64,000 bases of DNA from a virus (taxonomy: Duplodnaviria; Heunggongvirae; Uroviricota; Caudoviricetes). The notes beneath the pieces are model-generated. The model saw only the letters and a program-made list of their open reading frames with translations, searched no databases and was not told where the DNA came from. Both the position numbers and the translations under genes were made by a program. The stretch lies in IMG/VR virus record IMGVR_UViG_3300033463_000024. One strand, given 5' to 3'. Positions 205 through 26,583 of the stretch are shown one piece after another (the stretch's first letter is position 1; the number at the start of each line of letters is the position of its first letter).

Positions 205-252
205 ACCGTGTCCCCGGTGTCCCCGGTAATTGGGGACTTGGGGGAATATCGT
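205..252 (+). repeat. 48-bp ACCGT-N38-ATCGT hairpin element, copy 1
   Basis: ACCGT...GGGGACTTGGGGGAAT-ATCGT, then AAGGAGAC RBS. Confidence 0.95.
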
Positions 253-280
253 GTGAATGTAAGCAAAAAGGAGACATGCA

Positions 281-613
281 ATGAGAAAACCAACTGCAAG
301 CGGCATCAAGGCGCGTCTTTTCGAGAGTGCCTACTCGCGTGACCTCGCAAAGTTCAAGGACAAGCTGAACGCCCTGATGAAGGAAATTTCGGATGACGGG
401 TACTGGCTAGGCTACCACGTGACGGATGGGGACGGGATTGAGCTCGTCATGCTCCCGAAAAGCATCACTACCGAAAGGGACGATGCCAACGGGCCGGAGT
501 TCTGTTTTGAGAACGTTCTCAACGAGTTCGAGCCCCTGATGAAGGATGGCGAGTTCGCGGTCACTCTTTACCCTGCAAAGGACTGCATTGACGAAACCTG
601 CTGGGTAAAGTAG
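281..613 (+). CDS. hypothetical protein
   Basis: ORF with AAGGAGAC RBS after repeat. Confidence 0.8.
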   Translation: MRKPTASGIKARLFESAYSRDLAKFKDKLNALMKEISDDGYWLGYHVTDGDGIELVMLPKSITTERDDANGPEFCFENVLNEFEPLMKDGEFAVTLYPAKDCIDETCWVK

Positions 614-627
614 GTTCAGCCCATGCA

Positions 628-675
628 ACCGTGTCCCCGGTGTCCCCGGCAACCGGGGACTTGGGGGACTATCGT
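628..675 (+). repeat. 48-bp element, copy 2
   Basis: Same boxes, 38-bp spacer. Confidence 0.95.
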
Positions 676-703
676 ATGAATGTAAACAAAAAGGAGACAG
701 CTT

Positions 704-1273
704 ATGGCAAATATCATCAACATGGAACATGAAGCCAGTATTGCTGACGGTCGTTCCACCGACAGTTGTGTGACCTTTGGTCGCGACTCGGAGCTTCTTG
801 TGATGGCGGTCGGAATGGGAGTCCCTACGGGGGACTGGGCATCGAGTGACGAGTACAGCCCGGAGCACATGTTCATCACGAGCGGCATGGAGCAGATTGT
901 CGCGCTCGCGTTCGGGGACGATGCATGGATACGCGACCAGATGGCGTGCGAGAGCGACTACGGCATTTGGTTCTGCACTTTCCGTCACAAGAAGTTTTCG
1001 CCAGGAAAGACCGGGAAGGAAGGCGACCCGTTATTCCGCATTGTCGCCAGTCATTTCGATGGCAAGGTGCCGACCATGTATTTGCAATGCATCTTCGAGG
1101 AACAGGGCGTATATACAAGCTGTTCCAACGACCACCGATTCAATACCCCTGCGGAACTTGCCGGAGTCATTGACGATGCCGAACGCGAAATGTGGGAAGC
1201 CCACGATGCGGGCGAACTTTTCCCGCCTCGTCCGCGCAAAGCTGAACCACTCGCGGAAGAGAGTGTGGAATAG
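704..1273 (+). CDS. hypothetical protein
   Basis: ORF with RBS after repeat. Confidence 0.8.
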   Translation: MANIINMEHEASIADGRSTDSCVTFGRDSELLVMAVGMGVPTGDWASSDEYSPEHMFITSGMEQIVALAFGDDAWIRDQMACESDYGIWFCTFRHKKFSPGKTGKEGDPLFRIVASHFDGKVPTMYLQCIFEEQGVYTSCSNDHRFNTPAELAGVIDDAEREMWEAHDAGELFPPRPRKAEPLAEESVE

Positions 1274-1312
1274 GGAAGTAAAAAATTTTAACATTTAGCC
1301 CAGGAGACAACC

Positions 1313-2380
1313 ATGAATATCAGCAAGCAAGAACTTCTAAAAATCTTGGAAAATCACGCCCATTGGCTTGCAAAGGACTGCGATGGATGGAGGGACATGA
1401 GGGCCGACCTGTCCGAAAAAGACTTTAGCGGTGCCGAACTCTGTGGAGTGAATCTTTCCAAGGCCATACTTTGGAAGACCAACTTTCGCGGGGCGAAGCT
1501 TATCGGGTCGAAGCTTTCAAGCGCTAACATGAAGGCCGCCGATTTTACCGATGCAGACCTTTCCTATGCCGACCTCCGTTGGATAAAGGCCGACTATGCG
1601 AAATTCACTAGGGCAAATCTCGCCCGCACGGACTTGCTGAAAGCGCACTCGACAGATGGCGACTTTGCCAATGCGAACCTTTCCGGCACAAAGTTGCGCA
1701 AGGTGAATTTCAGTTCGTCAAATTTTACCAAGGCGGCATTCATTGATACTGACCTTACGGATGCGTATATGTCCGGTGCGAACTTTACCGATGTAAAGTT
1801 CGAGAGGGTACTCTTTGCCCGCACCTATCTTGCAACGGCAAAGATGGTAAGGGCGAACCTCGACAATGTGGACATGTCGAGAACGAGTGTACACGACATA
1901 TACATGGATATCTCCGATGTGGACTTTACGGATGCAAGTCTCCGTGGTGCGAAGCTCATGCACGGGAACATCTACAGGTCGAAGTTCAATAACGCGGACT
2001 TGACGGATGCTGACCTTTCCGAAGCGTTCCTTGTTGAAGCGAATTTCAACTCAGCAAACCTGACCAACGCGAATCTGACCGGAGCAAATCTCGAAGATGC
2101 TATCTTCACGAAGGCTACGACTGACGGTGCCGATTTCGCCAACGCCAAAATGAAGGACACGAAAATCAGCGACAGGCAGATTTCCAAGGCAAAGGCGGTC
2201 AAGGTGTTGAAGCGTGTCCCGCAGAAATTTGTAGTGACAGTTACCTACACGACCACGGTCGAGGCGGTCGAGGTCACCGAGGAAGAACGCAGGAAGGAAG
2301 CTGAACGGATTGCCGAAGGGAAGCTCATTTCCACCCTCGATGCCGATGTCGTGAGCGTGAAGGCCGAGCCCGTGAAGTAG
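1313..2380 (+). CDS. pentapeptide repeat protein
   Basis: About 250 aa of A(D/N)(L/F)xx repeats (ADLSEKDFSGAELCGVNLS...ANLTNANLTGANLEDA). Confidence 0.95.
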   Translation: MNISKQELLKILENHAHWLAKDCDGWRDMRADLSEKDFSGAELCGVNLSKAILWKTNFRGAKLIGSKLSSANMKAADFTDADLSYADLRWIKADYAKFTRANLARTDLLKAHSTDGDFANANLSGTKLRKVNFSSSNFTKAAFIDTDLTDAYMSGANFTDVKFERVLFARTYLATAKMVRANLDNVDMSRTSVHDIYMDISDVDFTDASLRGAKLMHGNIYRSKFNNADLTDADLSEAFLVEANFNSANLTNANLTGANLEDAIFTKATTDGADFANAKMKDTKISDRQISKAKAVKVLKRVPQKFVVTVTYTTTVEAVEVTEEERRKEAERIAEGKLISTLDADVVSVKAEPVK

Positions 2381-2386: not shown

Positions 2387-2434
2387 ACCGTGTCCCCCAG
2401 GTCCCCGTTCTTCGGGGACCTGGGGGACTATCGT
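2387..2434 (+). repeat. 48-bp element, copy 3 (perfect 16-bp stem)
   Basis: GTCCCCCAGGTCCCCG-TTCTT-CGGGGACCTGGGGGAC. Confidence 0.97.
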
Positions 2435-2463: not shown

Positions 2464-3111
2464 ATGGACATTAAAGACAGCAAGTTTTTTGTCGCGGCAG
2501 ACCTCAAAATCCTCCGCGCACTCGGTTTCAGCAACCTTGAAGTCAATGTGGACACGGAAGGCGAATCGGAAGAAATCGCCCTCGGTGACGGTCAGTACCT
2601 TGTGGGCGAGAGGGGCGACCTCGGCACATCCTACTATGTGATTGACCGCGACTGCCACGAAGCGTTTACCCACGGCGAAACATCCATCATGGCCCTTGCG
2701 CACTACCAGGCGAGTTCATTGACCCACTACAACTACGATGAAATCCCGGACTATTTCTGGTGGTGGGAACTCCGCGAAATCTTCTTCCGCAAGAACAACA
2801 AGAAGGGCGTGAGCGCAAAGCGTTTCCAGAGGTACCGCGATGACATTGGCATGGCCGTGGTGTTCAGCGCGGACTGCAAGAAAGTGAAGCTCGCGAAGAA
2901 CAAGTTTTCCAAGTACGACAAGGACGGGTGCTATTCTCCCCTCCCGGACGAACTCCCGGCCTTTGACGAGTGGGAAACCATCAAGGACAATACAGGCAAG
3001 CCGCTTGTGGCCAACTGCGCCAAGGTGTTCGAGTCTAGCGTATTTGCCGAACGGTCACGTGCGCTCAACATCCTTCTCAAGAAGTTCTACAAGCGCATCA
3101 ACGGAAAATAA
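2464..3111 (+). CDS. hypothetical protein, paralogue of 3751-4410
   Basis: MDIKDSKFF...PLPDELPAFDEWE shared with downstream copy. Confidence 0.85.
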   Translation: MDIKDSKFFVAADLKILRALGFSNLEVNVDTEGESEEIALGDGQYLVGERGDLGTSYYVIDRDCHEAFTHGETSIMALAHYQASSLTHYNYDEIPDYFWWWELREIFFRKNNKKGVSAKRFQRYRDDIGMAVVFSADCKKVKLAKNKFSKYDKDGCYSPLPDELPAFDEWETIKDNTGKPLVANCAKVFESSVFAERSRALNILLKKFYKRINGK

Positions 3112-3672: not shown

Positions 3673-3720
3673 ACCGTGTCCCATGTGTCCCCGTTCTTCG
3701 GGGACCTGGGGGACTATCGT
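3673..3720 (+). repeat. 48-bp element, copy 4
   Basis: Same boxes, 38-bp spacer. Confidence 0.95.
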
Positions 3721-3750: not shown

Positions 3751-4410
3751 ATGGACATCAAGGAAAGCAAGTATTTCACGGAAACAGACCTAAAGGTTCT
3801 TCGCGCCCTCGGTTTCAGGAAGCCGGAAGTTGAAGAAGGCGCCGACTATGGCGAGGAAATCTACCTCGGCAATGACACTTACCTGTACGGGCAACCGAAG
3901 GACATCGCATACGCCAGTACCGGCTATTACGACTACTTCGTATATGACCGCGATTCAGAAGAAAGCTATCGCCATACCGACCATGCTCTCATGGCAATCG
4001 CCGAGTTCATGGCGGGTCATCTTGCCTGCGATTTCTATGACGATATCCCAGACTTCTTTTGGCCGAATGAACTCCATACCATTACCACGCGCCTGAACCT
4101 GGTTCATAAGGTAGTGACCGTCAAGCGTTGCCAGACATGCCGCAGTGAACTTGGCTACGCCTTTGTCATCAACGGGGACGGTTCGCAGATAAAGATAGCA
4201 AAGAACAAGTTTACGAACGAAGACAATTACGGGAACTATGTTCCTCTGCCGGATGAACTTCCTGCATTTGACGAATGGGAAGCCATCATAGGCAAGGACG
4301 GTAAGCCGCTTGTGGCTGACTGTTCCCATGTGTTCAAGACGAGTTCCTACCGCGAGCAGTGCTGTTTGCTCAATCGTGTCGTGAAGGAACTTCATGACCG
4401 CATGGACTAA
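3751..4410 (+). CDS. hypothetical protein, paralogue of 2464-3111
   Basis: MDIKESKYF...PLPDELPAFDEWE; ATG after RBS. Confidence 0.85.
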   Translation: MDIKESKYFTETDLKVLRALGFRKPEVEEGADYGEEIYLGNDTYLYGQPKDIAYASTGYYDYFVYDRDSEESYRHTDHALMAIAEFMAGHLACDFYDDIPDFFWPNELHTITTRLNLVHKVVTVKRCQTCRSELGYAFVINGDGSQIKIAKNKFTNEDNYGNYVPLPDELPAFDEWEAIIGKDGKPLVADCSHVFKTSSYREQCCLLNRVVKELHDRMD

Positions 4411-4820: not shown

Positions 4821-4868
4821 ACCGTCCCCCGATCGATCCCGGCATGCCGGGACCTGGGGGATTATCGT
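4821..4868 (+). repeat. 48-bp element, copy 5
   Basis: Inner stem CCCGG-CATG-CCGGG. Confidence 0.95.
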
Positions 4869-4895: not shown

Positions 4896-5150
4896 ATGAT
4901 TCAACATATTGCTTATTACAACGACCCTATCGACATCTTCGAGCTGATGAACAAGGATGCCAAGAGCATCGTCAATTATTACAAGAAGGGCAAGGGTGCG
5001 TATTTGCGCCCTAACGACCCTGATTACGCCCCTATACAGGGATGCCATCCGGTTATGGTGGGCAAGGAAAAGTGGTACGTCAAGAAGTCCATCGACCGTA
5101 CGAAACTTGATTCCGATGGCAACTACATCGACTTGTACAAAGCAATTTAG
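4896..5150 (+). CDS. hypothetical protein
   Basis: RBS after repeat. Confidence 0.75.
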   Translation: MIQHIAYYNDPIDIFELMNKDAKSIVNYYKKGKGAYLRPNDPDYAPIQGCHPVMVGKEKWYVKKSIDRTKLDSDGNYIDLYKAI

Positions 5151-5667: not shown

Positions 5668-5715
5668 ACCGTCTGCCGATCGATCCCGGTCCTTCGGGAC
5701 CTGGGGGAGCATCGT
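5668..5715 (+). repeat. 48-bp element, copy 6
   Basis: Same boxes, 38-bp spacer. Confidence 0.95.
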
Positions 5716-5742: not shown

Positions 5743-6279
5743 ATGACAATCCACAATCTCATAAACGGCACCGCAACCCTCGACATTACTGTTGATGCCA
5801 AGAATCACGTTACCGCCGTGTTCAGCGACCCGAATACCTACGATGAACGCGAATTTACCGTGACCTGCAACACGGACAACGCGTTCATGGTGCTTCAAGA
5901 CATCATTGACCAGTTCGGTTTCGCAGATAACCCGTTCTTCAAGGCGTTTGGATGGGAACTGGAAGGCACAAAGGAAGCTACCGTAGCCAAGGAAGCCCCC
6001 CTCAATACCCCGACAAGAAAGCTTGAATACGGCGTGATTACGGCTTATCCGCACTCCGTCAAGTTCACGGCAATCCTCTCGGACATGAAGGGCGTGGCGG
6101 TCGCAGAAAGCCCGGAAATCATCTTCCTTAAGCCATCCCATCCGGCTTACATCCCGTGCAATGCATCGAGCGACAAGTTCGCCAAGCTAACCTCGTGGCT
6201 TGCAGAAAGGAACATCGCATACGAGACATCGGGCATTGCGGACTACGCCGAAACAATCTCGTTCCTGGTCGAAAAGTAG
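5743..6279 (+). CDS. hypothetical protein
   Basis: RBS after repeat. Confidence 0.8.
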   Translation: MTIHNLINGTATLDITVDAKNHVTAVFSDPNTYDEREFTVTCNTDNAFMVLQDIIDQFGFADNPFFKAFGWELEGTKEATVAKEAPLNTPTRKLEYGVITAYPHSVKFTAILSDMKGVAVAESPEIIFLKPSHPAYIPCNASSDKFAKLTSWLAERNIAYETSGIADYAETISFLVEK

Positions 6280-6283: not shown

Positions 6284-6331
6284 ACCGTATAGCCCAGGTG
6301 CCGGATGCCACGGCACCTGGGGGAACATCGT
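6284..6331 (+). repeat. 48-bp element, copy 7
   Basis: Compensated stem CCCAGGTGCCG/CGGCACCTGGG. Confidence 0.95.
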
Positions 6332-6368: not shown

Positions 6369-7049
6369 ATGAGTAAGAGTAAGATTAAAAAGTTCCCGCA
6401 TGAAATCGACTGTTGCCTGAAGAACGTGCATATCAAGGTCATCAAGACCCGTTCTCGCGGCAAGGACAAATACGTTTACGAAATCAGCGCAGACGGTACA
6501 GAACCGTTCATCCTCGACCCATGTTTGAGCTATGATGCAGGCGAATGCCCGGAATTTGAAGATACATGGTGCGGTGGCAAATGGGACAACGGCAAGTTCA
6601 AGGGTTGCGAATATGACATCAACATCATGGACAAGAGCGATTTCGGTGGCGAAACTGACGATGACAACGTTGGTCTCCGCGCCGCCATGTATGGTTGCGA
6701 AATTGTCGATGGTGAGACACAGACCAATACCAATGACGAAATCCCGTTCATCCCGGTAACATGCTGGTTCGAGAACAGCAAGGGCAAGCGCACCGAGTTC
6801 AAGTGCGATGACTCGGAAAACTTCGTTGAACTATTTGGCGAATGGGATGGTAAGAGACTCCCGACCGCCAAGGAACGCGAATTTACCGTCACGGGTACCC
6901 TCATGTTCGAGGTCACGTATGTCACGAAGGCGACCAACAGCGAAGATGCCAAGAAGGAAGCCTTCAAGCGACTAACCGAAATTTACCACAAGAAGGGTAT
7001 CGAAAATCTCGGAGTTCTCGGTAGCTTAACCATAAAAGAAAAACCATAA
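6369..7049 (+). CDS. hypothetical protein
   Basis: RBS after repeat. Confidence 0.8.
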   Translation: MSKSKIKKFPHEIDCCLKNVHIKVIKTRSRGKDKYVYEISADGTEPFILDPCLSYDAGECPEFEDTWCGGKWDNGKFKGCEYDINIMDKSDFGGETDDDNVGLRAAMYGCEIVDGETQTNTNDEIPFIPVTCWFENSKGKRTEFKCDDSENFVELFGEWDGKRLPTAKEREFTVTGTLMFEVTYVTKATNSEDAKKEAFKRLTEIYHKKGIENLGVLGSLTIKEKP

Positions 7050-7076: not shown

Positions 7077-7469
7077 ATGGCCGAAACCAAACTCGAAACC
7101 ATCATCCGCGTAACCAAGGAACTTAATGCAATCAAGGCTAAACACCCGCGCATCATAGACATCGGAGTCATGAGCGTGGAAGAGTTCATGGATACGGTTG
7201 GCAAAGACCTTCCTGCATGCGTTGTGAAACCGCTGAAGCCGCATAATGGCGGGTATGCGGGCTACATCCGCATCAGGTGCTCCGATGAACTGAAACGCAA
7301 GTTGAACTGCCCGTCCATTTGGGAATATTTGTTCCATGACAAGGCAGAAGATGCCATCATCGGCGCGGTGCAGGTGCTCCATGCCGCCTGCCTCAACAGG
7401 AACAACCATGACGAGGCGAAGTTCCTCGGCGAGCTTTCCAGGGAACTCCACATCGACCGTGTAGCGTAG
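7077..7469 (+). CDS. hypothetical protein
   Basis: GAGG RBS; 3' end runs into repeat copy 8. Confidence 0.75.
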   Translation: MAETKLETIIRVTKELNAIKAKHPRIIDIGVMSVEEFMDTVGKDLPACVVKPLKPHNGGYAGYIRIRCSDELKRKLNCPSIWEYLFHDKAEDAIIGAVQVLHAACLNRNNHDEAKFLGELSRELHIDRVA

Positions 7470-7503
7470 CTACCCGGTCCCGTGGGACCTGGGGGATCAT
7501 CGT
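7456..7503 (+). repeat. 48-bp element, copy 8
   Basis: Same boxes, 38-bp spacer. Confidence 0.93.
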
Positions 7504-7530: not shown

Positions 7531-7767
7531 ATGGCCAAAATTAAAAAAGAAAAGACCCCGAAGCCAAAGAAGAAAAAAGTTCGCAAGGCTTACAATATCA
7601 AGTGGGACACCGATGGCGCAACGCTGAAGGAATGTGGACTCCCGCGTTCCGTGGTCATCCCTGATGGCGTTGCGGACGAAGATGTCGGGGACTGGCTCTC
7701 GGATGAATATGGCTACTGCCATGACGGGTACACGACTAACTTTGAAATGGAAGAAGATGAAGCCTAA
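7531..7767 (+). CDS. hypothetical phage protein
   Basis: RBS; basic N-terminus, acidic C-terminus. Confidence 0.75.
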   Translation: MAKIKKEKTPKPKKKKVRKAYNIKWDTDGATLKECGLPRSVVIPDGVADEDVGDWLSDEYGYCHDGYTTNFEMEEDEA

Positions 7768-8367: not shown

Positions 8368-8793
8368 GTGACAAAGATTAAACTGACTGAACGCAAGTTC
8401 ACTCCGAACGAGCTGAAACAACTGAACTCCAAGACATACCTTTCCTGGAAGTGTACCCGCCAGACAATCATTATTGGGAATGACACCGATTTCGCCTTAT
8501 TTACAGTGAGCGAATGTCTCGGTTGTCCGCACCACTCAATCGGCATCACACCTATTGTGAAGCGTGGAGATAACGCATTGAAGGTGGTTGTATCCTTCAT
8601 GGACAAGGGGGAAGCCAAGCGGTTTTCCGCAATCGGTGCGACTACGGTAATGTTCACGACCGATGGTACTATTGCTGATGCGGTCGGCCTGGGTTCCGGT
8701 CTCGCCAAGGCACAGTACAAATTGTTGTACCAACTCCCGTGCGGAGCAGTCCGTGTGGGACGCGTACCGAAGAAACAAAAAGCTACCGTGTAG
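8368..8793 (+). CDS. hypothetical protein
   Basis: GTG after GGAGAC; ends inside repeat copy 9. Confidence 0.7.
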   Translation: MTKIKLTERKFTPNELKQLNSKTYLSWKCTRQTIIIGNDTDFALFTVSECLGCPHHSIGITPIVKRGDNALKVVVSFMDKGEAKRFSAIGATTVMFTTDGTIADAVGLGSGLAKAQYKLLYQLPCGAVRVGRVPKKQKATV

Positions 8794-8832
8794 CACGCCT
8801 CCCCGGTCCTTCGGGACCTGGGGGATCATCGT
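8785..8832 (+). repeat. 48-bp element, copy 9
   Basis: Same boxes, 38-bp spacer. Confidence 0.93.
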
Positions 8833-8872: not shown

Positions 8873-9265
8873 ATGAGTATGTATGCAGTAATCGGATATG
8901 GATTCTCGGAAGTCCCGCGCAGGGAACTTGACGGAACCGCACACAAGGCATTCCCGGTCATCAACAGCGTTTCGCATTTTGACACCCGTGGCGGTGCCGT
9001 AGATGACGTTATCAAGCGCCTTGAAGACATCGTCAAGAATGCCGATGATGATGTTGTACTTTCTTCGTACGGCGTTACCGATGTGTCCTATGACGCCAAT
9101 GATAACCACCTTACGTATTCAAGGACTGTCTTCGATGAAGACCACCCGGAATCAAACCTCTTCGGGCTTCGTAAATGCATGGAGCTTTATGGCCACACCC
9201 ATGTCGAAGTGAAAGTCGGTGGCACCAAGGCAACCTACGCAATCGTCCGCGTCAAGGAGGACTAA
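8873..9265 (+). CDS. hypothetical protein
   Basis: ATG after RBS. Confidence 0.75.
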   Translation: MSMYAVIGYGFSEVPRRELDGTAHKAFPVINSVSHFDTRGGAVDDVIKRLEDIVKNADDDVVLSSYGVTDVSYDANDNHLTYSRTVFDEDHPESNLFGLRKCMELYGHTHVEVKVGGTKATYAIVRVKED

Positions 9266-9894: not shown

Positions 9895-9942
9895 ACCGTG
9901 TTCCAGGTGTCCCCGATCTTCGGGGACCTGGGGGAACATCGT
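9895..9942 (+). repeat. 48-bp element, copy 10
   Basis: Same boxes, 38-bp spacer. Confidence 0.95.
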
Positions 9943-9983: not shown

Positions 9984-10610
9984 ATGAACGAAAGACAGAA
10001 AGCCGCATTTGAACGTACTGAAAAGCGCTTAAAAGAGCGCTTGACCAGATATGAAAACGATGAACTTGCATTGAGCCTCATTGAATACAACCCGAAGAAG
10101 GATGGCACCGCACGCCAAAATTTCGCGGACAACTTTGCCATCCGTGGTCTTGGGACTGCATTGAAGTACCCTAGCGGCTACTCATGTCGCCGTGTGGAAG
10201 TGAAGCCAGTAACATACAACGGCTACAAGGGTTCTACTGTTAGAAGTCTTGACATCAGCGTTCTCGAAATTGAGAAGCCGGAGGACATGCAGAAGGCGGG
10301 AATTGACCGCCCGGTTAAGCATGTAAATGACGAACGTTTCGCATTCAGCATTTTCAGCGACTTCGAGGATATGCCGACAGATACTACTGCGGAACAGTAT
10401 GTGAAGGTCATCCATGAAAAGATCATTCCGGGAATCAGGGCAAAGCAGGAACAGATTAAGCAGGAACTTGCAATGCTCCCCGAAATGTTCAACCAGTTTA
10501 TCATCATGGGCAACATGTACAATAAACTGGAAAAGGAGACCGAGGGCTCGTACCTTTTGAAGTACGCCCTTAGCGACCTTGTTAAGTCAATCCCCGATTT
10601 GCACGACTAG
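9984..10610 (+). CDS. hypothetical protein
   Basis: RBS after repeat. Confidence 0.8.
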   Translation: MNERQKAAFERTEKRLKERLTRYENDELALSLIEYNPKKDGTARQNFADNFAIRGLGTALKYPSGYSCRRVEVKPVTYNGYKGSTVRSLDISVLEIEKPEDMQKAGIDRPVKHVNDERFAFSIFSDFEDMPTDTTAEQYVKVIHEKIIPGIRAKQEQIKQELAMLPEMFNQFIIMGNMYNKLEKETEGSYLLKYALSDLVKSIPDLHD

Positions 10611-10624
10611 ATTTGTTGTCTCCA

Positions 10625-10762
10625 GCCGGGCGTATGCAAGTGGGCACAAGCGCCCCGCGATTACCCAGATGAAATGACCCAAGACAGAGAGAACTGTTAG
10701 GGTGGGGAAAGTGGGGAGACGAGCTAAACATCGCCACGGAGGTTCGAATCCTTCCCCCGGCA
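10625..10762 (+). ncRNA. tRNA-like RNA with 52-nt insert replacing the anticodon loop
   Basis: Acceptor GCCGGG(C)G/CCCCGGC, D arm, stem CCCCGC/GTGGGG, long variable region, T arm GGAGG-TTCGAAT-CCTTC. Confidence 0.6.
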
Positions 10763-10840
10763 ATTTTTATTTTTATTTTTCTTCAAATCAGGTAACAACA
10801 ACAGAAACTTAGAAGCATTCAAATCCATATTGGAGAAGCT

Positions 10841-11005
10841 ATGCCAGGAAAGAAATATTTAATATCATATAATTGGAAACGCAACCTTAACGGTCAGTAT
10901 TGTTACTACGACCATTACGAAACCGATTCACTCGTTATAGCTATCGTAAAGTTTTTGCTATTAAAAAGAAAATATGAAGTAATGACAATCGAATATCGTG
11001 GCTAA
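10841..11005 (+). CDS. small hypothetical protein (54 aa), AT-rich island
   Basis: GGAG RBS, ATG...TAA read by hand. Confidence 0.55.
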   Translation: MPGKKYLISYNWKRNLNGQYCYYDHYETDSLVIAIVKFLLLKRKYEVMTIEYRG

Positions 11006-11033
11006 TGATATTTCCAAAAAGAGGAATTAAATA

Positions 11034-11303
11034 TTGAAAAATTCGCAAAAGGATAGATACTACAACAGACTGCAAAAATGTCTGAAGGAAATTGGTAAAC
11101 TCACTCCGTTGAGATATGTGGAATGGCATGAGCATCGTGATAAAGTCTTGAAAGAGTATGGATTTACGATGGATGATTATTACAAGATGTGCAGCCTGAC
11201 TGAATCCAACACTAAGGTCAGATGCGACGAAAGCGTTAGGACATTCAAGGAAAAACAAAAGATTATGCTTGACAAGAAGCTTGATGAATGTGAAATTCAA
11301 TGA
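11034..11303 (+). CDS. hypothetical protein, AT-rich island
   Basis: TTG start after AGAGGA. Confidence 0.65.
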   Translation: MKNSQKDRYYNRLQKCLKEIGKLTPLRYVEWHEHRDKVLKEYGFTMDDYYKMCSLTESNTKVRCDESVRTFKEKQKIMLDKKLDECEIQ

Positions 11304-11846: not shown

Positions 11847-11852
11847 TCATGG

Positions 11853-13310: not shown

Positions 13311-13358
13311 ACCGTGTCCCATGTGTCCCCGATCTTCGGGGACCTGGGGGACCATCGT
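13311..13358 (+). repeat. 48-bp element, copy 11
   Basis: Same boxes, 38-bp spacer. Confidence 0.95.
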
Positions 13359-14181: not shown

Positions 14182-14229
14182 ACCGTGTCGAAATACCCCC
14201 GGTTCCATGGGGACCTGGGGGACTATCGT
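14182..14229 (+). repeat. 48-bp element, copy 12
   Basis: Same boxes, 38-bp spacer. Confidence 0.93.
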
Positions 14230-15176: not shown

Positions 15177-15224
15177 ACCGTGCCGGGAATCCCCCGGATC
15201 CACGGGGGCCTGGGGGCTCATCGT
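15177..15224 (+). repeat. 48-bp element, copy 13
   Basis: Stem CCCCCG/CGGGGG. Confidence 0.93.
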
Positions 15225-15744: not shown

Positions 15745-15792
15745 ACCGTCCGACTATGCGCCCGGATCCACGGGGACCTGGGGGCACATCGT
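15745..15792 (+). repeat. 48-bp element, copy 14
   Basis: Same boxes, 38-bp spacer. Confidence 0.93.
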
Positions 15793-15820: not shown

Positions 15821-15982
15821 ATGATTTACGATTTTGCACAACAATCTCCGCGAATCCTTATCGACGAAGGCGATGGGCACCTTGTGGACCGTAGAACCGC
15901 AGACAATCTTAAAAACGGGAATCCCATATTTTATAGCACGGACGAAAACGGGCACGCCGTTCCGGCATTCAACAAGGAGTAA
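15821..15982 (+). CDS. small hypothetical protein (53 aa)
   Basis: AAGGAGAC RBS, MIYDFAQQ...FNKE*. Confidence 0.65.
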   Translation: MIYDFAQQSPRILIDEGDGHLVDRRTADNLKNGNPIFYSTDENGHAVPAFNKE

Positions 15983-16961: not shown

Positions 16962-18209
16962 ATGGGATATACTTGTGGTCGTCATTTAACTAAAACTCTA
17001 TGTAGGCGTATAGCGAAAACATGTAGCACAATTACTGAATTTGCGAAAAAAGATATCCCCGCATATAACAAAGCATTAGCCAATGGATGGCTTGATGAAT
17101 GGTTTATCCGACTATCCCACAAACCTTTTACTAAAGAAGATTGCTTACTTATAGCAAAACAATGTTCATCTCGTGCTGAGTTTAAGCGTAAATCTCACGC
17201 GGCTTATAACAATGCATTACAGAATGGGTGGATAGATGAATATGCATGGTTCAAAACAACAGCCGAACTTAGACGGGAAAGACGCACCTTTACCGATGAT
17301 GATGTAATTAACGCATCTAAGAAATATACTAAACTAAGTGATTTTTCCAAAGCTGAACCGGCCCGTTGTGCTATGGCATATAAAAGAGGTTTAATTAATA
17401 AAATGCCGTGGCTAACTCGTAATGCTGAAGTAATGAACCGAAAATGCCTTGATTGTGTTTATGTTTATGAATTTTCGCTACATAAAGTTGCTTATATCGG
17501 ACGTTCGGTAGAACCACATTGCCGAGACATTAAGCATCATAAGTCTACCGATGTCGTTGCTCGCTATGCAATAGCTCACCATTTGCAAATTCCAACGATG
17601 AAAATTCTTAAAGATGGCATCACTTATAAACAAGGGGCAATGCTAGAAGCTAAAATGATGCAGACTTATATCAACCGCGGCTGGCATCTTTTAAATAAAG
17701 CACCGGCGGGAAGTATTGGTGGACTAGGTGCCGGAAAACTTACTAAAACCTATTGTATCAATGTCGCTCGTAAATACGCCACGGTTGCCGAGCTAGTAGC
17801 TAATGATGGTTCAGTATATAACAAATTATGCAAATGTAAATGGCTTTCGGAATGCGATTGGCTTCATAAGAAACATGTCCCTAAAGGAACTTGGAGCAAT
17901 ATGTCAAAGGAAGAACTTTTATTGGAAGCCCGTAAATATTCCTCTCGAAATGAATTAATGGATAAATTGAAAAGCGTGTATGAGATTATTCGCGCAAATG
18001 GATGGATGCCCGAAGTATTCCCGAATAGCCTCAGTGCGCCTAAAAAGGTTGCCCAATGCACAACAGATGGGAGACTCATTTGTATTCATAATTCAATTAG
18101 TGATGCCGCTAAAGCGTTAAACACTAAGAATCCGTGTATTTCGGCAATTTGCCGTGGAGTACCCGGTAAGCACACTTGCAAAGGGTTTACATTTAAGTTC
18201 GTGGAGTAA
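16962..18209 (+). CDS. GIY-YIG-type homing endonuclease with helical repeats and C-terminal NUMOD1-like HTH
   Basis: CVYVY...AYIGRS motif; five ~38-aa repeats; VAQCTTDG...SISDAAKAL...ISAICRG...KGFTFKF; visibly AT-richer DNA. Confidence 0.8.
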   Translation: MGYTCGRHLTKTLCRRIAKTCSTITEFAKKDIPAYNKALANGWLDEWFIRLSHKPFTKEDCLLIAKQCSSRAEFKRKSHAAYNNALQNGWIDEYAWFKTTAELRRERRTFTDDDVINASKKYTKLSDFSKAEPARCAMAYKRGLINKMPWLTRNAEVMNRKCLDCVYVYEFSLHKVAYIGRSVEPHCRDIKHHKSTDVVARYAIAHHLQIPTMKILKDGITYKQGAMLEAKMMQTYINRGWHLLNKAPAGSIGGLGAGKLTKTYCINVARKYATVAELVANDGSVYNKLCKCKWLSECDWLHKKHVPKGTWSNMSKEELLLEARKYSSRNELMDKLKSVYEIIRANGWMPEVFPNSLSAPKKVAQCTTDGRLICIHNSISDAAKALNTKNPCISAICRGVPGKHTCKGFTFKFVE

Positions 18210-18253
18210 ATCGTGATTTGGTAGATTTGTTGTCTCCACGTCCCCCTGTCCCC
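18207..18253 (+). repeat. 47-bp direct repeat, right copy
   Basis: Starts with the endonuclease stop codon; overlaps repeat copy 15. Confidence 0.95.
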
Positions 18254-18282
18254 ATTGTCTCCGGGGACACGGGGGATTATCG
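18235..18282 (+). repeat. 48-bp element, copy 15 (degenerate)
   Basis: CCCCCTGTCCC...GGGACACGGGGG-ATT-ATCGT; ACCGT box missing. Confidence 0.75.
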
Positions 18283-18323
18283 TAAAGGCACAAACAATAA
18301 CCACTTAGCAAAAGGAAACAGTC

Positions 18324-19053: not shown

Positions 19054-19125
19054 GCGCTCGTGGTGTAATGGACAGCACATCAGCTTCCGAAGCTGATAAT
19101 TCCAGTTCGAAGCTGGACGAGCGTA
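19054..19125 (+). tRNA. tRNA-Arg(CCG)
   Basis: GCGCTCG/CGAGCGT acceptor, TCAGC-TTCCGAA-GCTGA anticodon arm, TCCAG-TTCGAAG-CTGGA T arm; no encoded CCA. Confidence 0.9.
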
Positions 19126-19275
19126 CTAATGGAACTGGACCCCTGAATGGTGCAAATTTGATATACCATGCCCGTGAAAGCGAGCGATGGAACTCAAACA
19201 CCCAAACAACCAAACACCATCTATCAAACCTTGCGCCTGGGCCCGGTACCATCAATTCTACATCATGAAACCCAG

Positions 19276-19304
19276 AGACACGGGAATGGTCCCGTGTCTT
19301 TTTT
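19276..19304 (+). terminator. intrinsic terminator
   Basis: AGACACGGGA-ATGG-TCCCGTGTCT followed by T-run. Confidence 0.8.
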
Positions 19305-19312
19305 CGTATGCT

Positions 19313-19360
19313 ACCGTGTACCGATGGTTCCAGGTCTCCCAGGACCTGGGGGAACATCGT
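19313..19360 (+). repeat. 48-bp element, copy 16
   Basis: Stem CCAGGTC/GACCTGG. Confidence 0.93.
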
Positions 19361-19400: not shown

Positions 19401-20033
19401 ATGAAAAGACTCAACAGGCTTCTCGCCGCAATCAAGAAATTCTCTTCTGTGGACAATGTTGCCCGCTACATTCACGGTATCAAGTTTGACCTCAACCGAC
19501 AGACAATCGAGGCAACCGATGGCAATGCCGGAATAATTGTCAAGGGTAGCAAGGGACTTGTTGCCGCGATGGCAAATGAATATGCCGAACATCTTGGGCT
19601 TGAACCGGTCGGGGGCGACTTTGGTGTAGTCAAGCTCGCCCCGGCAAACGGCAAGATGTGGCCTAATGCCGAACGCCTCGATAAGGAAAATACGCTTAAG
19701 GCAGACTTGCGCAAGTGCCTCAGTTTCGAACACGACCCGAAAACGAACAATTACGCACATATTCACAATGGCCAGTTCCAGCGTCTCAATCAGTTCTGCA
19801 AGGTGGTCAAGGTGCCGTTGAAGCTCATTCCGGGCATGACATATCTCGCCCCTGTCATGCAATATGGAAAGAGCAAGTTCAATGGTGAAGAAATCTACTT
19901 CTGCATCGCACAGATGCCGAAATTCCGCGCTCTATATGACGCACAGGACAATCTCATTACCACCTGTGTCCAGTATGAAAGCATGGATGAAATCGACAAT
20001 GAAGCCATGCAGGTGTTCAAGCAGATGGCATAA
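19401..20033 (+). CDS. hypothetical protein
   Basis: ATG after AAGGAGAC. Confidence 0.8.
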   Translation: MKRLNRLLAAIKKFSSVDNVARYIHGIKFDLNRQTIEATDGNAGIIVKGSKGLVAAMANEYAEHLGLEPVGGDFGVVKLAPANGKMWPNAERLDKENTLKADLRKCLSFEHDPKTNNYAHIHNGQFQRLNQFCKVVKVPLKLIPGMTYLAPVMQYGKSKFNGEEIYFCIAQMPKFRALYDAQDNLITTCVQYESMDEIDNEAMQVFKQMA

Positions 20034-20327: not shown

Positions 20328-20375
20328 GCCGTGTAGACAACCCTCCCGGTCTTCGGGGGCCTGGGGGATTATCGT
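20328..20375 (+). repeat. 48-bp element, copy 17
   Basis: GCCGT-N38-ATCGT. Confidence 0.9.
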
Positions 20376-20414: not shown

Positions 20415-21179
20415 ATGCCGCAAGCCGCACACAACTTCTATGAAAACGAATTGAAGCCAACCCTTCTCGAAGTATTCGAGGAAATCTACATTGATGTCAC
20501 TAAAGGTGACGAATGGTACCAAATCGGATGCGAAGAGTCCGGCGTACCGGAAGATTGTGAATGGGAAGACCGCGATGGCTTCTGGAGCCACAACAACGGC
20601 GGTGTCGAAATGTCCTTCATCCCGAGCACTTCCATCTTCTCCAACGGTTGCAGACATGCTCCATGTATTCAAGCGTGGGTGGATGGGCAGTACAAGGAAT
20701 GCAAGGAAAATGCATTGGACGATGAAAACTACCTTGAATGGAAGGCTGAACAGGAAGCCGAAGGCAAGGAGTCTGATGTCGAATACTGGCTCTCCGATAC
20801 CGATGATGGCAACGAGTTCGAGAATGACCATGAAGATTCCTACATGGAATCCACTCCGTTCTGCAATGTGAAAGCATGGTTGCAGGGAGTCGATGGCTAC
20901 CAGTTCAGGGGCGAAGTTGAACCTGATACCGTCTTGAAGCTCCACTTCGAGTTCTGCTTCAATGATGACCTTGGATACGGTCGTCCGTACATTTCCTGGT
21001 GCCCCGGTGTCGGCGACCACCCGAAGTGCGCTGCCAACATCTACTTCGAGGCCAAGAATGTCGAATTTGCCCGTCAGCTTCTCAAGACCAAGATTCTTGA
21101 AATGGCCAAGCTCCCGGACGATGAACAGCGCGAAACGGTCGATTTCTATGCAGACGGTCTCGATGATAGACAGTTCTAG
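20415..21179 (+). CDS. hypothetical acidic protein
   Basis: RBS after repeat. Confidence 0.8.
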   Translation: MPQAAHNFYENELKPTLLEVFEEIYIDVTKGDEWYQIGCEESGVPEDCEWEDRDGFWSHNNGGVEMSFIPSTSIFSNGCRHAPCIQAWVDGQYKECKENALDDENYLEWKAEQEAEGKESDVEYWLSDTDDGNEFENDHEDSYMESTPFCNVKAWLQGVDGYQFRGEVEPDTVLKLHFEFCFNDDLGYGRPYISWCPGVGDHPKCAANIYFEAKNVEFARQLLKTKILEMAKLPDDEQRETVDFYADGLDDRQF

Positions 21180-24209: not shown

Positions 24210-24257
24210 ACCGTATAACCCAGTGCCCCGTTTTCATGGGACCTGGGGTATCATCGT
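24210..24257 (+). repeat. 48-bp element, copy 18
   Basis: Same boxes, 38-bp spacer. Confidence 0.9.
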
Positions 24258-24283: not shown

Positions 24284-24538
24284 ATGACTATCACGCTTAA
24301 CGACCCTATACAGAAAAAGTCCATGAGCAAGGAAGCCAACGCGAACGTGCTCGCGTGCAAGACGAACATGTTTGGCATCCTGAACTCCCTGGGCAACCGG
24401 GTGGACATATATTCCGGTACAAACTTCTTCGACCACAACAAGAAACTTCTGCAACGAATCTTCCTTAAATCAACGTTCATCCGATGTGTCCTGTGGTTCG
24501 ACAAGAACCATGCGACCTGCCTGGGGGTAAAGCTATGA
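24284..24538 (+). CDS. hypothetical protein
   Basis: GAGG RBS after repeat. Confidence 0.7.
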   Translation: MTITLNDPIQKKSMSKEANANVLACKTNMFGILNSLGNRVDIYSGTNFFDHNKKLLQRIFLKSTFIRCVLWFDKNHATCLGVKL

Positions 24539-24843
24539 TAATGCAATGGAAACAGCGCAATGGCGCAATCATGACCGTGGACATTGACGCGATAATGCGC
24601 CTGGAATATATCCCAAACGAGAAATACGGTCGCCCCATGCTTACCGTGATGACATGCGATGTGGTCGATACAATCAGCGGTCGCCCGGCCCTTCCCGGGG
24701 ACCCGGCCTACATACCCGACTGCGACACCGCGGAAGTCTTGATTAACCAGCCACAGAAGGGGCCGACCTCATGGAAGCTGTTTAGGATTCCGACCGAGAT
24801 TATGGAGCTTCACAACTACCTTGTGAAGTGCAAGTCAAACTGA
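24535..24843 (+). CDS. hypothetical protein
   Basis: ATGA coupling. Confidence 0.7.
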   Translation: MIMQWKQRNGAIMTVDIDAIMRLEYIPNEKYGRPMLTVMTCDVVDTISGRPALPGDPAYIPDCDTAEVLINQPQKGPTSWKLFRIPTEIMELHNYLVKCKSN

Positions 24844-24847
24844 TTCA

Positions 24848-24895
24848 ACCGTGTACACCATGTTCCCGTTCTTTGGGGACCTGGGGGATCATCGT
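24848..24895 (+). repeat. 48-bp element, copy 19
   Basis: Same boxes, 38-bp spacer. Confidence 0.95.
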
Positions 24896-24917
24896 AAGGC
24901 AACCGAAAGGAGATTAA

Positions 24918-26129
24918 ATGCGAAACGAATATAAATGCGTTAGCGGATGGCGCAACATTGCCGCACCTATCTTGTGGAATGCACTCACGAAGCCATCCTC
25001 CACTGATAGCACGCGCACCGACCGTACGGAAGCCATGAATGACGCCCTAGCAAGCCTCCACCTGAATGCAGAGGTAGTCGGCATCAAGCAGGGTCCCGTC
25101 ATTACCCGCTATATGGTAAAGGTGGGCGATGGCATCCGCGTGCGAAATGTGCGAAATAATCTCGAAGACCTCGCAATGCGCCTTGGCGTGCCATGCAAGT
25201 CCATCCGCATCGAGTGTAACGATGGCCTTATCGGCATCGAAGTCCCGAACGAGACACGCTCAGTAGTCCCGTGCCGTACCATCGTGACCCCAGATAACAG
25301 CGGCCTGATACAGTTCGGCTCGCTCAATATTGGCATGGGTGTCGATATTGTTGGAAATCCGGTACACTTCAACCTCGCAAAGGCACCGCACATGCTTGTC
25401 GCGGGACAGACAGGTTCAGGCAAGAGCGTGTTCCTCAACTCGCTCATCTGCAACCTCCTGATGAACAACCATCCCAATGAATTATCCCTCGTCCTGATCG
25501 ATCCGAAGGGAACTGAAATGCAGTCTTATGCGGCGATACCGACAGTCCAGGTCATCAACAACGTGCGTGATGCCGTAAAGAAGCTCGCCTCGCTTGTCGA
25601 TGTGATGGAAGCCCGTTACAGAATGTTTACGGAAGCAACGGTTTCGTGCGGAAAGCCTGTACGTACGCTTGATGACTACATGGAAACTGTCACCGATTAC
25701 ACACGCGACATAAGCAACCGTTGCCGCATCGTCGTGGTAATTGATGAAGTTGCCGACCTGATGGCATGCGATAAACAGGGCATGGAAACAAGCATCGCCC
25801 GTCTCGCCGCGAAAGCCCGTGCCGCAGGCATCCACCTAGTCCTCGCAACGCAGAGACCTTCCCGCGATGTAATCACAGGCACAATCAAGGCAAACCTCCC
25901 GACCCGCATCGCGTTCCGGCTCCCGTCACAGGTAGACTCCAAGACTATCCTTGATGAAATCGGTGCCGAGTCGCTTCTGGGACGTGGGGACATGCTGTTC
26001 AAGACTACCGATGGAGTTACCCGTCTGCATGGATGCTGGATGTCCGATAAAGACATCATGAACTTCATCAACATGTACAAACAGATTTACAGTATAATCA
26101 ACAGGAGAACCAATGAAAAACCCGTTTAA
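24918..26129 (+). CDS. FtsK/SpoIIIE-family DNA translocase motor domain (no TM, no gamma domain)
   Basis: GPVITRY alpha domain, PHMLVAGQTGSGKS, LIDPK, VVVIDEVADLM, ARAAGIHLVLATQRPS, GAESLLGRGDML. Confidence 0.93.
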   Translation: MRNEYKCVSGWRNIAAPILWNALTKPSSTDSTRTDRTEAMNDALASLHLNAEVVGIKQGPVITRYMVKVGDGIRVRNVRNNLEDLAMRLGVPCKSIRIECNDGLIGIEVPNETRSVVPCRTIVTPDNSGLIQFGSLNIGMGVDIVGNPVHFNLAKAPHMLVAGQTGSGKSVFLNSLICNLLMNNHPNELSLVLIDPKGTEMQSYAAIPTVQVINNVRDAVKKLASLVDVMEARYRMFTEATVSCGKPVRTLDDYMETVTDYTRDISNRCRIVVVIDEVADLMACDKQGMETSIARLAAKARAAGIHLVLATQRPSRDVITGTIKANLPTRIAFRLPSQVDSKTILDEIGAESLLGRGDMLFKTTDGVTRLHGCWMSDKDIMNFINMYKQIYSIINRRTNEKPV

Positions 26130-26562
26130 GTGGATGCATGACAAGGCATACAATGACCGCAAGAACCACCCGGTTCGGGTCAGCCTGGACTTCATGTTCA
26201 TCGAGGCGATAGTTGCCGCATGGCAGGCGTTGTGGATTGTATGCAATGATGTAACCCAATGCCCAGGCACGATGTTGCTCGCCTTCCTGAATCTCCTTGG
26301 TTTCGGCGGTTTATTGTGTCATGAACTCGATAAAATCATCGGGGTTTGCACACATGACTGGCGACACGCAGATATTAGAAACCCGGACATCATCAGTCTT
26401 ATTCTAGGTCTTGAAAAGGCCGAAAAGGACATCAACGAAGGAAAGCTCGCCTGGAAGGCTGCGTTCTACGACCCATCTAAGGAGCGAATCGAATATACCC
26501 ACATTCCTCTGGATCCGAAGCCGGAAGAAGAACCGACCGTATCCGAGGGCATCCAGGGCTAA
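26113..26562 (+). CDS. hypothetical membrane protein
   Basis: AGGAG RBS; hydrophobic segments; ends inside repeat copy 20. Confidence 0.7.
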   Translation: MKNPFKWMHDKAYNDRKNHPVRVSLDFMFIEAIVAAWQALWIVCNDVTQCPGTMLLAFLNLLGFGGLLCHELDKIIGVCTHDWRHADIRNPDIISLILGLEKAEKDINEGKLAWKAAFYDPSKERIEYTHIPLDPKPEEEPTVSEGIQG

Positions 26563-26583
26563 GGGGACCTGGGGGCGAATCGT
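26536..26583 (+). repeat. 48-bp element, copy 20 (last)
   Basis: ACCGT-N38-ATCGT; only CCAGG/CCTGG pairing left. Confidence 0.9.

Follow-up and report, generated by a model that had tools for sequence, protein, structure and literature searches.

The element described here, which recurs ahead of the genes in one block of a jumbo phage genome, is probably a repeated phage-specific promoter cassette with an embedded conserved DNA/RNA hairpin, a prediction that draws on its geometry and context. In the window, the 64,000-nucleotide stretch that was analysed, the pattern RCCGT-N38-ATCGT occurs 19 times compared with 0.22 expected from shuffles, and none of 100 shuffles reached 19. All 19 matches lie on the + strand and span 205 to 26583. 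The upstream box (box 1) reads ACCGT in 18 of them and GCCGT in one (the copy at 20328), and the exact 38-bp spacing between the boxes put forward in the original prediction was recovered in the window. A 20th copy, at 18236-18283, is degenerate and lacks box 1, and GGACCTGGGGG was found in all window copies with at most one mismatch. The whole 203-kb contig holds 31 strict and 5 degenerate copies, all on a single strand. The copies and related features of the window are as follows.

205..252, + strand: element copy (box 1 to box 2); predicted start site 259; gene 281-613
628..675, + strand: element copy; gene 704-1273
2387..2434, + strand: element copy with a perfect 16-bp palindrome (hence a - strand match too); gene 2464-3111
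3673..3720, + strand: element copy; gene 3751-4410
4821..4868, + strand: element copy; gene 4896-5150
5668..5715, + strand: element copy; gene 5743-6279
6284..6331, + strand: element copy, inner stem GGTGCCG/CGGCACC; gene 6369-7049
7456..7503, + strand: element copy, end of the upstream ORF inside the left arm; gene 7531-7767
8785..8832, + strand: element copy, stop codon of the upstream ORF within ACCGTGTAG; gene 8873-9265
9895..9942, + strand: element copy; gene 9984-10610
13311..13358, + strand: element copy; gene 13385-13699
14182..14229, + strand: element copy; gene 14260-14646
15177..15224, + strand: element copy; gene 15252-15740
15745..15792, + strand: element copy; gene 15821-15982
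18236..18283, + strand: degenerate copy, hairpin and ATCGT retained, box 1 replaced; identical sequence in relative locus L162
19010..19038, + strand: example of the second promoter class, TTGCCA-N-TGCTATATT; drives tRNA-Arg 19054-19126
19274..19308, + strand: intrinsic terminator, 12-bp stem and T run; ends 5 nt before the next copy
19313..19360, + strand: element copy right behind the terminator, stem CCAGGTC/GACCTGG; gene 19401-20033
20328..20375, + strand: element copy, box 1 GCCGT; gene 20415-21179
24210..24257, + strand: element copy, GGGGT variant; gene 24284-24538
24848..24895, + strand: element copy; FtsK/SpoIIIE-like gene 24918-26129
26536..26583, + strand: last element copy, overlapping the end of ORF 26113-26562
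26629..27408, + strand: sigma-70-family factor, regions 2 and 4, under the last copy

Every copy is placed after the stop codon of the preceding gene and before the ribosome site of the following one. A Shine-Dalgarno sequence, a start codon and an open reading frame follow 146 of 155 distinct copies (94%), mostly 25-29 nt past ATCGT, and no 10-mer is more frequent in the contig than AAAGGAGACA. The elements precede one to three genes each, in a block of uniform orientation that covers at least 47 kb here and ~75 kb in a 399-kb relative; relatives have some cassettes in common and not others, and eight proteins of the block gave no PHROG match. For most window copies the upstream gene ends 4-12 nt before the hairpin, with no terminator between them. 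A canonical terminator (GC stem, GNRA-type loop and T run) is present within ~45 nt upstream of 35 of 157 distinct copies (22%), and the genes behind these consequently need a new start. The element's own hairpin has no T run, being followed by T-R-G-G-r-r-Y-R and an A-rich leader, and is not an intrinsic terminator. A hairpin repeat of the REP or IS200-IS605 type was rejected, since every copy points the same way as the genes and keeps a fixed distance to the ribosome site, and no HUH (TnpA) transposase was matched among the ORFs scanned, which covered part of the window; the sole transposon-family match among them was a TnpB at 29877-31163.

The bases that follow ATCGT are highly regular: a purine occupies +1 in 100% of copies and +7 in 99%, and +6 is a pyrimidine in 98%. 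The phage also has a second promoter class, comprising 36 sigma70-type promoters of the form TTGCCA-N14-TGCTAYATT, many of them leaderless, in which T-G-G-r-r-Y-A follows the -10 element and, in 16 of the 36, the A of the leaderless ATG stands at +7. At the level of sequence, ATCGT with its six following bases and the invariant Y-R step mirrors the -10/discriminator/start layout of these promoters. However, no -35-like hexamer 16-18 bp upstream of ATCGT was conserved across the aligned copies; indeed, at positions 19-24, which lie 17 bp ahead of cATCGT, every base except G20 carries less than 1 bit. This agrees with the original view that the element is not an ordinary -35/-10 promoter, the best-conserved block falling in the would-be spacer, and to our knowledge known sigma-70-family holoenzymes do not read DNA with its best-conserved block at that place. 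The element thus resembles canonical sigma70 promoters, the phage's own included, in its -10-like hexamer (A-11 and T-7), its G-rich discriminator and a -1/+1 pyrimidine-purine step seven bases past the hexamer, where the start is predicted. It differs from them in having neither a -35 hexamer nor a TG extension, and in having conserved bases at -27 to -13 and at -54 to -48, plus the hairpin.

These features suggest a model whereby a composite cassette of ~58 nt would serve one to three genes at a time. Its 3' part would be a phage-specific promoter for a bacterial-type RNA polymerase with a sigma-family factor, in which cATCGT would act as the -10 element (A at -11, T at -7) and the next six bases (GGrrY) as the discriminator. 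Transcription would then start at the invariant purine 7 nt past ATCGT, giving a leader of ~20-35 nt that would carry the conserved ribosome site AAGGAGACA. The reader could be the RpoD-like phage sigma or a host holoenzyme. The 203 kb encode two sigma-70-family factors; the gene for the RpoD-like one sits behind a consensus host-type promoter, and in four lineages the last copy is followed by a sigma gene, an arrangement kept where the sigma is 50-71% identical.

The spacer between the boxes forms a two-tier hairpin, and the boxes themselves can pair (C2-G46, G3-C45 and T4-A43). Box 1 (CCGT) and box 2 (A-T-CG) would accordingly provide the two strands of the hairpin foot, with a 5-bp outer stem above it and then a 5-8-bp inner stem. 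The mean fold energy of the copies is -21.5 kcal/mol, compared with -13.9 for shuffles. Hairpins have 10-19 pairs over a span of ~45 nt with loops of 3-10 nt, most copies showing 14-17 pairs and an internal loop. A search of the window with Rfam 15 at the gathering score matched only tRNAs and the tmRNA, and nothing on the element. Covariation is seen in the five pairs next to the boxes as well as in the inner stem: 87.8% of the cells of the outer helix are paired, pair 7:40 is found as U-A 56 times, C-G 11, A-U 8 and G-C 4, and 15:31 and 16:30 covary too. In distant lineages the outer stem is wholly replaced in a compensatory manner (GTTCC/GGAAC, GTGAC/GTCAC, GTAC/GTAC and GTGC/GCAC). The left arm of copy 14182 has 12 differences from the copy at the orthologous site in a relative, where the flanking gene is 97% identical. 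That the spacer diverges freely, as first supposed, holds for variability in its left half, where positions 10-16 carry less than 0.9 bit compared with 1.5-2 bits at 28-47, but not for the right half, which is nearly fixed inside a lineage, nor for independence of the two, as the left half changes in step and the hairpin is retained. In contrast to the stems, the three foot pairs never vary, even in lineages with a sigma 50% identical, so that covariation cannot prove their pairing; the natural box variants so far (A0 to G, T or C; C1 to T; T44 to A) touch only unpaired positions.

Contrary to what had been claimed from the window, the spacing is not strictly invariant. On the 203-kb contig, 31 spacers are 38 nt long, two are 39 nt (grc 8503 and grc 13047) and one is 40 nt (grc 12235). 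For this phage and its close metagenomic relatives, 198 measurable copies gave 166 spacers of 38 nt, 29 of 39 and 3 of 40, and three more distant lineages gave 8 of 38 and 4 of 39. Together these related metagenomic phages give 210 measurable copies, split 174, 33 and 3 between the three lengths, with none below 38, so that +1 and +2 variants make up ~17% of homologous copies. Spacer indels in homologues are thus frequent to a degree that partly undoes the claim, and a strong constraint nevertheless stays. The single insertions all fall at positions 9-31, which are the internal and apical loops, and in the 40-nt copy (grc 12235) both arms of the outer stem have gained a base, which amounts to a whole extra base pair. 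Length change confined to loops, or once paired, is the signature of a stem-loop rather than of two protein contacts on one helix face. The 38-nt spacing is strongly constrained and mostly reflects the hairpin; 38 nt would be the length of the stem-loop, whose stems cannot change singly and whose loops would accept only one or two extra bases.

It is against this background that contact by a protein with two sites in duplex DNA has to be weighed. Here the ATCGT region and, near -54, ACCGT would be bound on the same helix face by an activator, sigma domain or dimer; phasing would require the fixed 43 bp from start to start, and the palindrome would be incidental. The distance does correspond to ~4.1 helical turns, and both boxes contain a CGTG/CGTR word in direct orientation, with a third YRT word 8 nt on. 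The foot pairs do not covary even where the sigma is 50% identical, and C-2, A0, C1 and T47 are nearly invariant though unpaired in the fold, which pairing does not account for. However, phasing should be indifferent to where an extra base sits, yet insertions keep to the loops or, once, to both arms; 39- and 40-nt spacers are found at the pooled frequency given above and in 4 of 7 copies of lineage L371; and an incidental palindrome would not undergo full compensatory replacement of its arms. We therefore consider this explanation unlikely, and the proposal of helical phasing in duplex DNA was not supported. The other suggestion made at the outset, that the hairpin brings the boxes together, fits better, because the boxes are complementary and form the hairpin foot, and the adjoining pairs covary. 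Protein may still contact box 1, since the unpaired C-2, A0 and C1 are also nearly invariant.

Within the promoter-cassette reading, the hairpin might act in either of two ways. We favour a structure in read-through transcripts that would mark or insulate cistron boundaries, as in the T4-type PeSL cassettes discussed below; alternatively, it could be a DNA structure that takes part in promoter recognition. Hairpin stability is -20.2 kcal/mol after terminators and -21.9 elsewhere, and this equal stability counts against a role solely in read-through RNA. Strand bias is neutral in this respect: isolated mismatches number 8 for G.T and 8 for A.C, and the excess of G.U pairs on the + strand (166 to 69) is also predicted from the G-rich right arm. 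In its boldest form, which we hold to be an outside chance, the DNA alternative would define a new structure-dependent promoter class for a sigma-dependent bacterial-type polymerase, with the ~45-nt DNA hairpin as part of recognition and expression of the block dependent on supercoiling. Extrusion of the inner hairpin (13-33, 21 nt in the modelled register) would bring box 1 to a distance of exactly 17 bp from the -10-like box, as expected of a -35 element, and would amount to N4-like logic operating on host polymerase and phage sigma in a takeover block of 75 kb.

Could the element instead act in RNA only, with no promoter at all? It would then be an endonuclease processing or stabilising site in long polycistronic transcripts that arise from a few sigma70-type promoters. 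The early region of T7 offers an analogue, with RNase III sites between its cistrons. On the T7 map of Dunn and Studier these sites are reportedly imperfect, mutually similar intercistronic hairpins, several of them adjacent to phage promoters, a likeness that the present hairpins share; they are, however, said to lie downstream of their promoters and to be transcribed from them, and to lack invariant single-stranded flanking boxes. The 14-17-pair hairpin with its internal loop lies between cistrons, the close, terminator-free junction upstream of most window copies would suit such a role, and a few sigma70-type promoters do occur inside and upstream of the block (window coordinates -14879, 11873, 19030 and 22523). 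Against this, the genes behind the strong terminators need a new start, hairpins are kept equally where upstream transcription has terminated, the Y-R step at +6/+7 with GGrrY matches the phage's promoters, a likeness that cleavage in the stem would leave unexplained, and no Rfam family was matched. An RNA-only element is for these reasons distinctly unlikely.

The least probable reading, and a very unlikely one, is a structural promoter of the N4 type, in which a supercoil-extruded hairpin would be recognised as single-stranded DNA by a phage polymerase or factor, with initiation at a fixed distance beyond the stem foot. N4 virion-RNA-polymerase early promoters have a 5-7 bp stem, a 3-nt loop and conservation from -17 to +1, and their three copies at one genome end are read on the template-strand DNA by an injected 3500-aa polymerase (PMC4496689). 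The logic is shared: both hairpins mix conserved bases with variable stem bases that need only pair (PMC4496689), with a start few bases past the stem, predicted here 8 nt past the last paired base. Hairpins are retained irrespective of upstream terminators, and a pentapeptide-repeat protein is encoded within the block. The pentapeptide-repeat family includes gyrase-binding DNA mimics. However, the element is a two-tier hairpin of ~45 nt with sigma-like downstream geometry and at least 36 copies over tens of kb; the palindrome is imperfect in many copies, with a loop of 5-10 nt, and such palindromes are poor extruders; under DNA parameters the mean fold energy is only about -10 kcal/mol per strand. 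No T7/N4-like or beta-prime-like polymerase was found in the 203 kb, where the largest ORF is 907 aa; the contig is 52% complete and its missing half may hold one. PF00940 likewise had no match in these 203 kb, about half of the genome, but the control genomes gave none either.

Among known systems, the T4-type PeSL cassette comes closest, with N4 hairpin promoters as an analogue in mechanism. In PeSLs (promoter-early stem-loops) of T4-type phages, a near-consensus sigma70 -35/-10 promoter is preceded by a stem-loop (PMC2839356; PMC4122927). Both are short composite intergenic repeats made up of a stem-loop, a promoter (here a predicted one), a Shine-Dalgarno sequence and a start codon, and both are found repeatedly in a plastic part of the genome, ahead of many small genes without known function. 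Copies are seemingly exchanged in both, copy 14182 being swapped here in its 97%-identical context. In contrast to PeSLs, the hairpin here engulfs the promoter, its 3' arm running into the -10-like box and pairing up to G46; the element has no sigma70 promoter with -35 and -10 hexamers 17 bp apart, and two invariant pentamers form the stem foot in the absence of a -35 hexamer. The carrier, a jumbo phage, is uncultivated and has genes for two sigma factors. A more distant parallel is provided by the start-associated sequences (SAS) of Cluster K mycobacteriophages, a ribosome-site motif before a subset of non-structural genes, about half of which are preceded by extended SAS, imperfect inverted repeats with a variable spacer and unknown function (PMC3203893). 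A conserved ribosome-site motif, upstream inverted repeats and a single orientation are common to both, but the arms of the extended SAS are conserved 17-mers that do not covary, the overall length is not fixed, pentamer boxes do not flank them, and their sequences and hosts are unrelated to those of the element.

As a promoter cassette, the element would be the regulatory unit of a block of unknown genes that measures no less than 47 kb here and ~75 kb in a relative. These phages belong to an uncultivated clade of rumen jumbo phages with genomes of up to ~400 kb. Two promoter classes and two sigma genes on one contig allow a testable transcription cascade to be proposed, in which a host-type promoter would express the RpoD-like phage sigma, the hairpin promoters would follow, and the last of these would drive the second sigma. 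What is unusual is that bases are conserved where sigma-type promoters are normally unconstrained, and that lineages with a sigma of only 50% identity still retain a covarying hairpin. A hairpin with a part in recognition would represent a new way to read a promoter; one that acts in RNA would make the element an extreme, fused form of the PeSL cassettes, proposed drivers of gene shuffling in large phages. In both cases the consensus permits direct annotation of this gene class from metagenomic sequence.

The pattern RCCGT-N38-ATCGT, whose first motif is termed box 1 and the second box 2, occurs 19 times in the window, where 0.22 matches would be expected. All 19 lie on the + strand, from 205 to 26583, and the GGACCTGGGGG block was found in all copies. 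The whole contig carries 31 strict copies on a single strand, and a profile made from these recovered five more that are degenerate. When copies are aligned on box 1, such that position 0 is the A of ACCGT, the conserved left part comprises C at -2, ACCGTGT, CC at 17-18 and G20, and the right part GG at 28-29, CCTGGGGGA at 32-40, ATCGT at 43-47, R48 and, at 53/54, a Y-R step; positions 10-16 vary. The copy at 18236-18283 is the only one without box 1, and a 95%-identical relative, L162, shares it in this degenerate form. In the window, an ORF of 415 aa without a Pfam match lies just upstream of this copy (16962-18283 region).

The window corresponds to positions 123224-187223, read on the reverse strand, of a 203,111-bp IMG/VR viral contig, estimated by CheckV to be 52% complete. 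Large terminase, an NrdD-type reductase and an NAD-dependent ligase are among the encoded proteins, and no near match to the window sequence was found in deposited phage genomes. The window also encodes six tRNAs and one tmRNA, most of them in a single cluster:

48186-51619, - strand: cluster of five tRNAs and the tmRNA, tag peptide ANNAYACRMAA

Within IMG/VR no other carrier of the element was found: four DNA patterns (a 14-base core, the complete two-box motif and the variants found in lineages L369 and L371) gave single chance matches or none, and a 416-kb contig with one pattern match contained only that one copy. The sigma protein, used as an IMG/VR query, returned a single distant relative. 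When prokaryotes were scanned with one genome for each species, only single matches appeared, mostly in GC-rich actinomycetes, so in that collection the element is not a host or prophage repeat. Many carriers were present in JGI/ENA metagenomes, including JAEEGJ010001900.1 (398,643 bp) and JAEEGL013721786.1 (299,887 bp). The former is 92-96% identical to the window over their overlap, with element copies occupying about 258-334 kb of the record. A further locus, L227, overlaps the contig end at 99.9% identity and adds about 7 kb to the element block. The element is a genuine regulatory cassette, lineage-specific and under strong selection.

The original prediction held that the 38-bp distance between the boxes is invariant. 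This is correct for the window; among relatives, however, longer spacers occur. Of 211 profile matches, 198 have both boxes, and their spacers measure 38 (n=166), 39 (n=29) or 40 nt (n=3) and are never shorter; the spacing is thus tightly bounded rather than invariant. The remaining 13 include copies cut by locus ends, an opposite-strand palindrome and copies in which one box is changed (box 1 to TCCGT or ATCGT; box 2 to AACGT). All single-base insertions of the 39- and 40-nt copies fall within positions 9-31, that is, in loops, and one 40-nt copy (grc 12235 on the contig) has one added base in each outer-stem arm, gaining a whole base pair. This pattern is as expected for a stem-loop and not for two phased protein contacts on duplex DNA, and the suggestion that a protein complex contacts both boxes on the same DNA face is therefore not supported.

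The alternative offered with it, that a hairpin links the boxes, fared better. In minimum-energy folds of single copies box 1 pairs with box 2 as the hairpin foot (C2-G46, G3-C45 and T4-A43, with T44 bulged), followed by an outer stem from G5-C42 to C9-G38 and then by an inner stem at about positions 13-20 and 26-33. The mean fold energy is -21.5 kcal/mol, compared with -13.9 when interiors are shuffled. When 125 distinct 38-nt copies are aligned without gaps, 77.5% of the cells of this structure are paired, and sliding it by one to three columns gives 54% at best. Changes on both sides of a pair were seen in 79 cells, against 37 in shuffles, and none of 500 shuffles reached 79. Pair 7:40 appears as U-A, C-G, A-U and G-C, and the inner stem shows compensatory swaps (GGCGCC/GGCGCC, GGTGCC/GGCACC, GCTCC/GGAGC, GTGTCC/GGACAC and GACCC/GGGTC). 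Since the inner-stem register varies, fixed-column statistics are lowered. Register shifts also confound fixed-register counts. Isolated mismatches, used as a test of DNA versus RNA or of strand, numbered eight G.T and eight A.C. The + strand has more G.U pairs (166 vs 69) and an advantage of 1.7 kcal/mol, both roughly as expected from the G-rich right arm.

Homologues of the sigma factor encoded behind the last copy reach down to 46% identity, and a covariance model made from the 125-copy alignment was used to search four contigs that encode them. Twelve diverged elements were found, spread over three of the four, with spacers of 38 (n=8) or 39 nt (n=4). In L369, GACCCTGCGTCAC stands in place of the G-run block and the outer stem is GTGAC/GTCAC; L371 has CCCGT as box 1 and AACGT as box 2, with an outer stem of either GTGC/GCAC or GTAC/GTAC. 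Every lineage shares C2 G3 T4 G5, C17 C18, G28 G29, C32 C33 Y34 G35, C42 A43 n C45 G46 T47 R48, and Y53 R54. The box positions that differ between lineages (0 and 44) are unpaired in the fold. The G-run, previously singled out as the key conserved block, is thus lineage-specific, and what is conserved is the architecture. A sub-lineage, L214 (Ga0310690_10012422), has 13 copies with CCCGGTGGT or CCTGATGGT instead of CCTGGGGGA and a left outer arm altered to match (GTAC.../...GTAC); these would make a useful natural mutant series.

Every copy lies between an upstream stop codon and the next gene's ribosome site, and some run into the end of the preceding ORF. A Shine-Dalgarno sequence, start codon and ORF follow 146 of the 155 distinct copies, most often 25-29 nt past ATCGT. 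Of 157 distinct copies, 35 have a canonical intrinsic terminator within about 45 nt on their upstream side; one in the window, with a 12-bp stem and a T run, ends 5 nt ahead of copy 19313. Genes behind such terminators need a new start, and among conserved sequences only the element could supply it. In the left part of the block many elements are preceded by a conserved terminator module, GTGCTC-GCAA-GAGCAC or GGGCC-GAAA-GGCCC followed by TTTTTATTTTTCAATTTT (for example L190:7646-7690, and window coordinates -10749 and -13174, on the same contig outside the window), so that there terminator and promoter make up one larger cassette.

A second, sigma70-type promoter class, TTGCCA-N14-TGCTAYATT, has 36 strict copies on the contig. 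It is very uniform (GTTGCCA-N14-TGCTAYATT), with about 40 sites on the contig, mostly ahead of - strand genes, besides these four in the window:

11873, + strand: second-class promoter
19030, + strand: second-class promoter
22523, + strand: second-class promoter
29267, + strand: second-class promoter

In 16 of the 36 strict copies the A of the ATG is exactly 7 nt past the -10 hexamer, indicating leaderless mRNAs and defining the start-site geometry of the polymerase active on this phage. One leaderless gene behind such a sigma70-type promoter, N-formylglutamate-amidohydrolase-like (11888-12595), lies within an element-free stretch of lower GC (about 41%) at window 10610-13311, which breaks up the element block and looks like an inserted module. 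The six bases from hexamer to start are T-G-G-r-r-Y in the second class; in the element, R-G-G-r-r-Y follows ATCGT, and the next base is a purine in 99% of cases. Given this shared geometry, cATCGT would serve as the -10 element (A at -11, T at -7), and transcription would start at position 54, giving leaders of 16-39 nt in the window. The element has no -35 hexamer and its conserved block falls at -27 to -14, in agreement with the earlier view that this is not an ordinary promoter. No third promoter motif was found upstream of the remaining genes. We conclude that the spacing is best explained as a consequence of a hairpin footed by both boxes, inside a putative non-canonical sigma-type promoter.

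Being upstream of the putative start, the hairpin would be transcribed only by read-through from upstream. Its energy is -20.2 kcal/mol behind terminators and -21.9 elsewhere, and this equal stability fits either a role as DNA or homogenisation of copies by recombination. Recombination is indeed visible: copy 14182-14229 differs from its counterpart at the orthologous site of a close relative (L134:717-764) at 12 of 48 positions, beside a gene that is 97% identical, which points to copy-to-copy exchange by concerted evolution or cassette shuffling. The block also encodes a pentapeptide-repeat protein of 355 aa (window 1313-2380, +; Pfam E = 4e-49). Some members of this family are DNA mimics that bind gyrase, which may matter if hairpin promoters depend on supercoiling.

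Other readings of the element fit less well. The hairpin lacks the T tract of a classical terminator. By eye, the GG/GC spacing misfits sigma54, the GGAC-to-CGT distance is 11-12 rather than the 16-17 nt of an ECF-type promoter, an extended -10 would have T-G where G-A is found, and the arms covary rather than staying conserved as in a dimeric operator. Among known systems the nearest kind is the PeSL cassette of T4-type phages, which combines a stem-loop, a promoter and a Shine-Dalgarno sequence ahead of small genes in plastic regions, although the element has neither a separate stem-loop nor a sigma70 -35/-10 pair. Early promoters of N4 similarly combine a hairpin, conserved bases and bases that merely pair, but differ in size, number and polymerase. 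The SAS/ESAS repeats of Cluster K mycobacteriophages, of unknown function, are a further analogue. No Rfam family matches the element, and literature searches found no description of it.

The 203 kb of this 52%-complete contig encode two sigma-70-family factors that have both region 2 and region 4, and no T7-like or beta-prime domain was found there. One, RpoD-like (L009), lies behind a near-consensus TTGACA...TGTTATATT promoter; the other (window 26629-27408) follows the last element copy. The order FtsK/SpoIIIE-like ATPase, last element, sigma is kept (window 24918-27408, L369:6420-8944 and L371:6601-8709) in lineages with 50-71% sigma identity, and in L372 the sigma likewise follows an element. 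Beyond the sigma none of the lineages has a further element; in L370 this covers 10 kb. Just past the block is a TnpB (OrfB_IS605/Cas12f-like) gene (window 29877-31163, +), with no transposase match among the ORFs scanned nearby. Region 2.4 residues of both sigmas are unlike those of group 1 sigmas. Host holoenzyme may conceivably read the element directly. In the simplest cascade we can infer, host holoenzyme would make the RpoD-like sigma, the hairpin promoters would fire next, and the second sigma would then start a later class.
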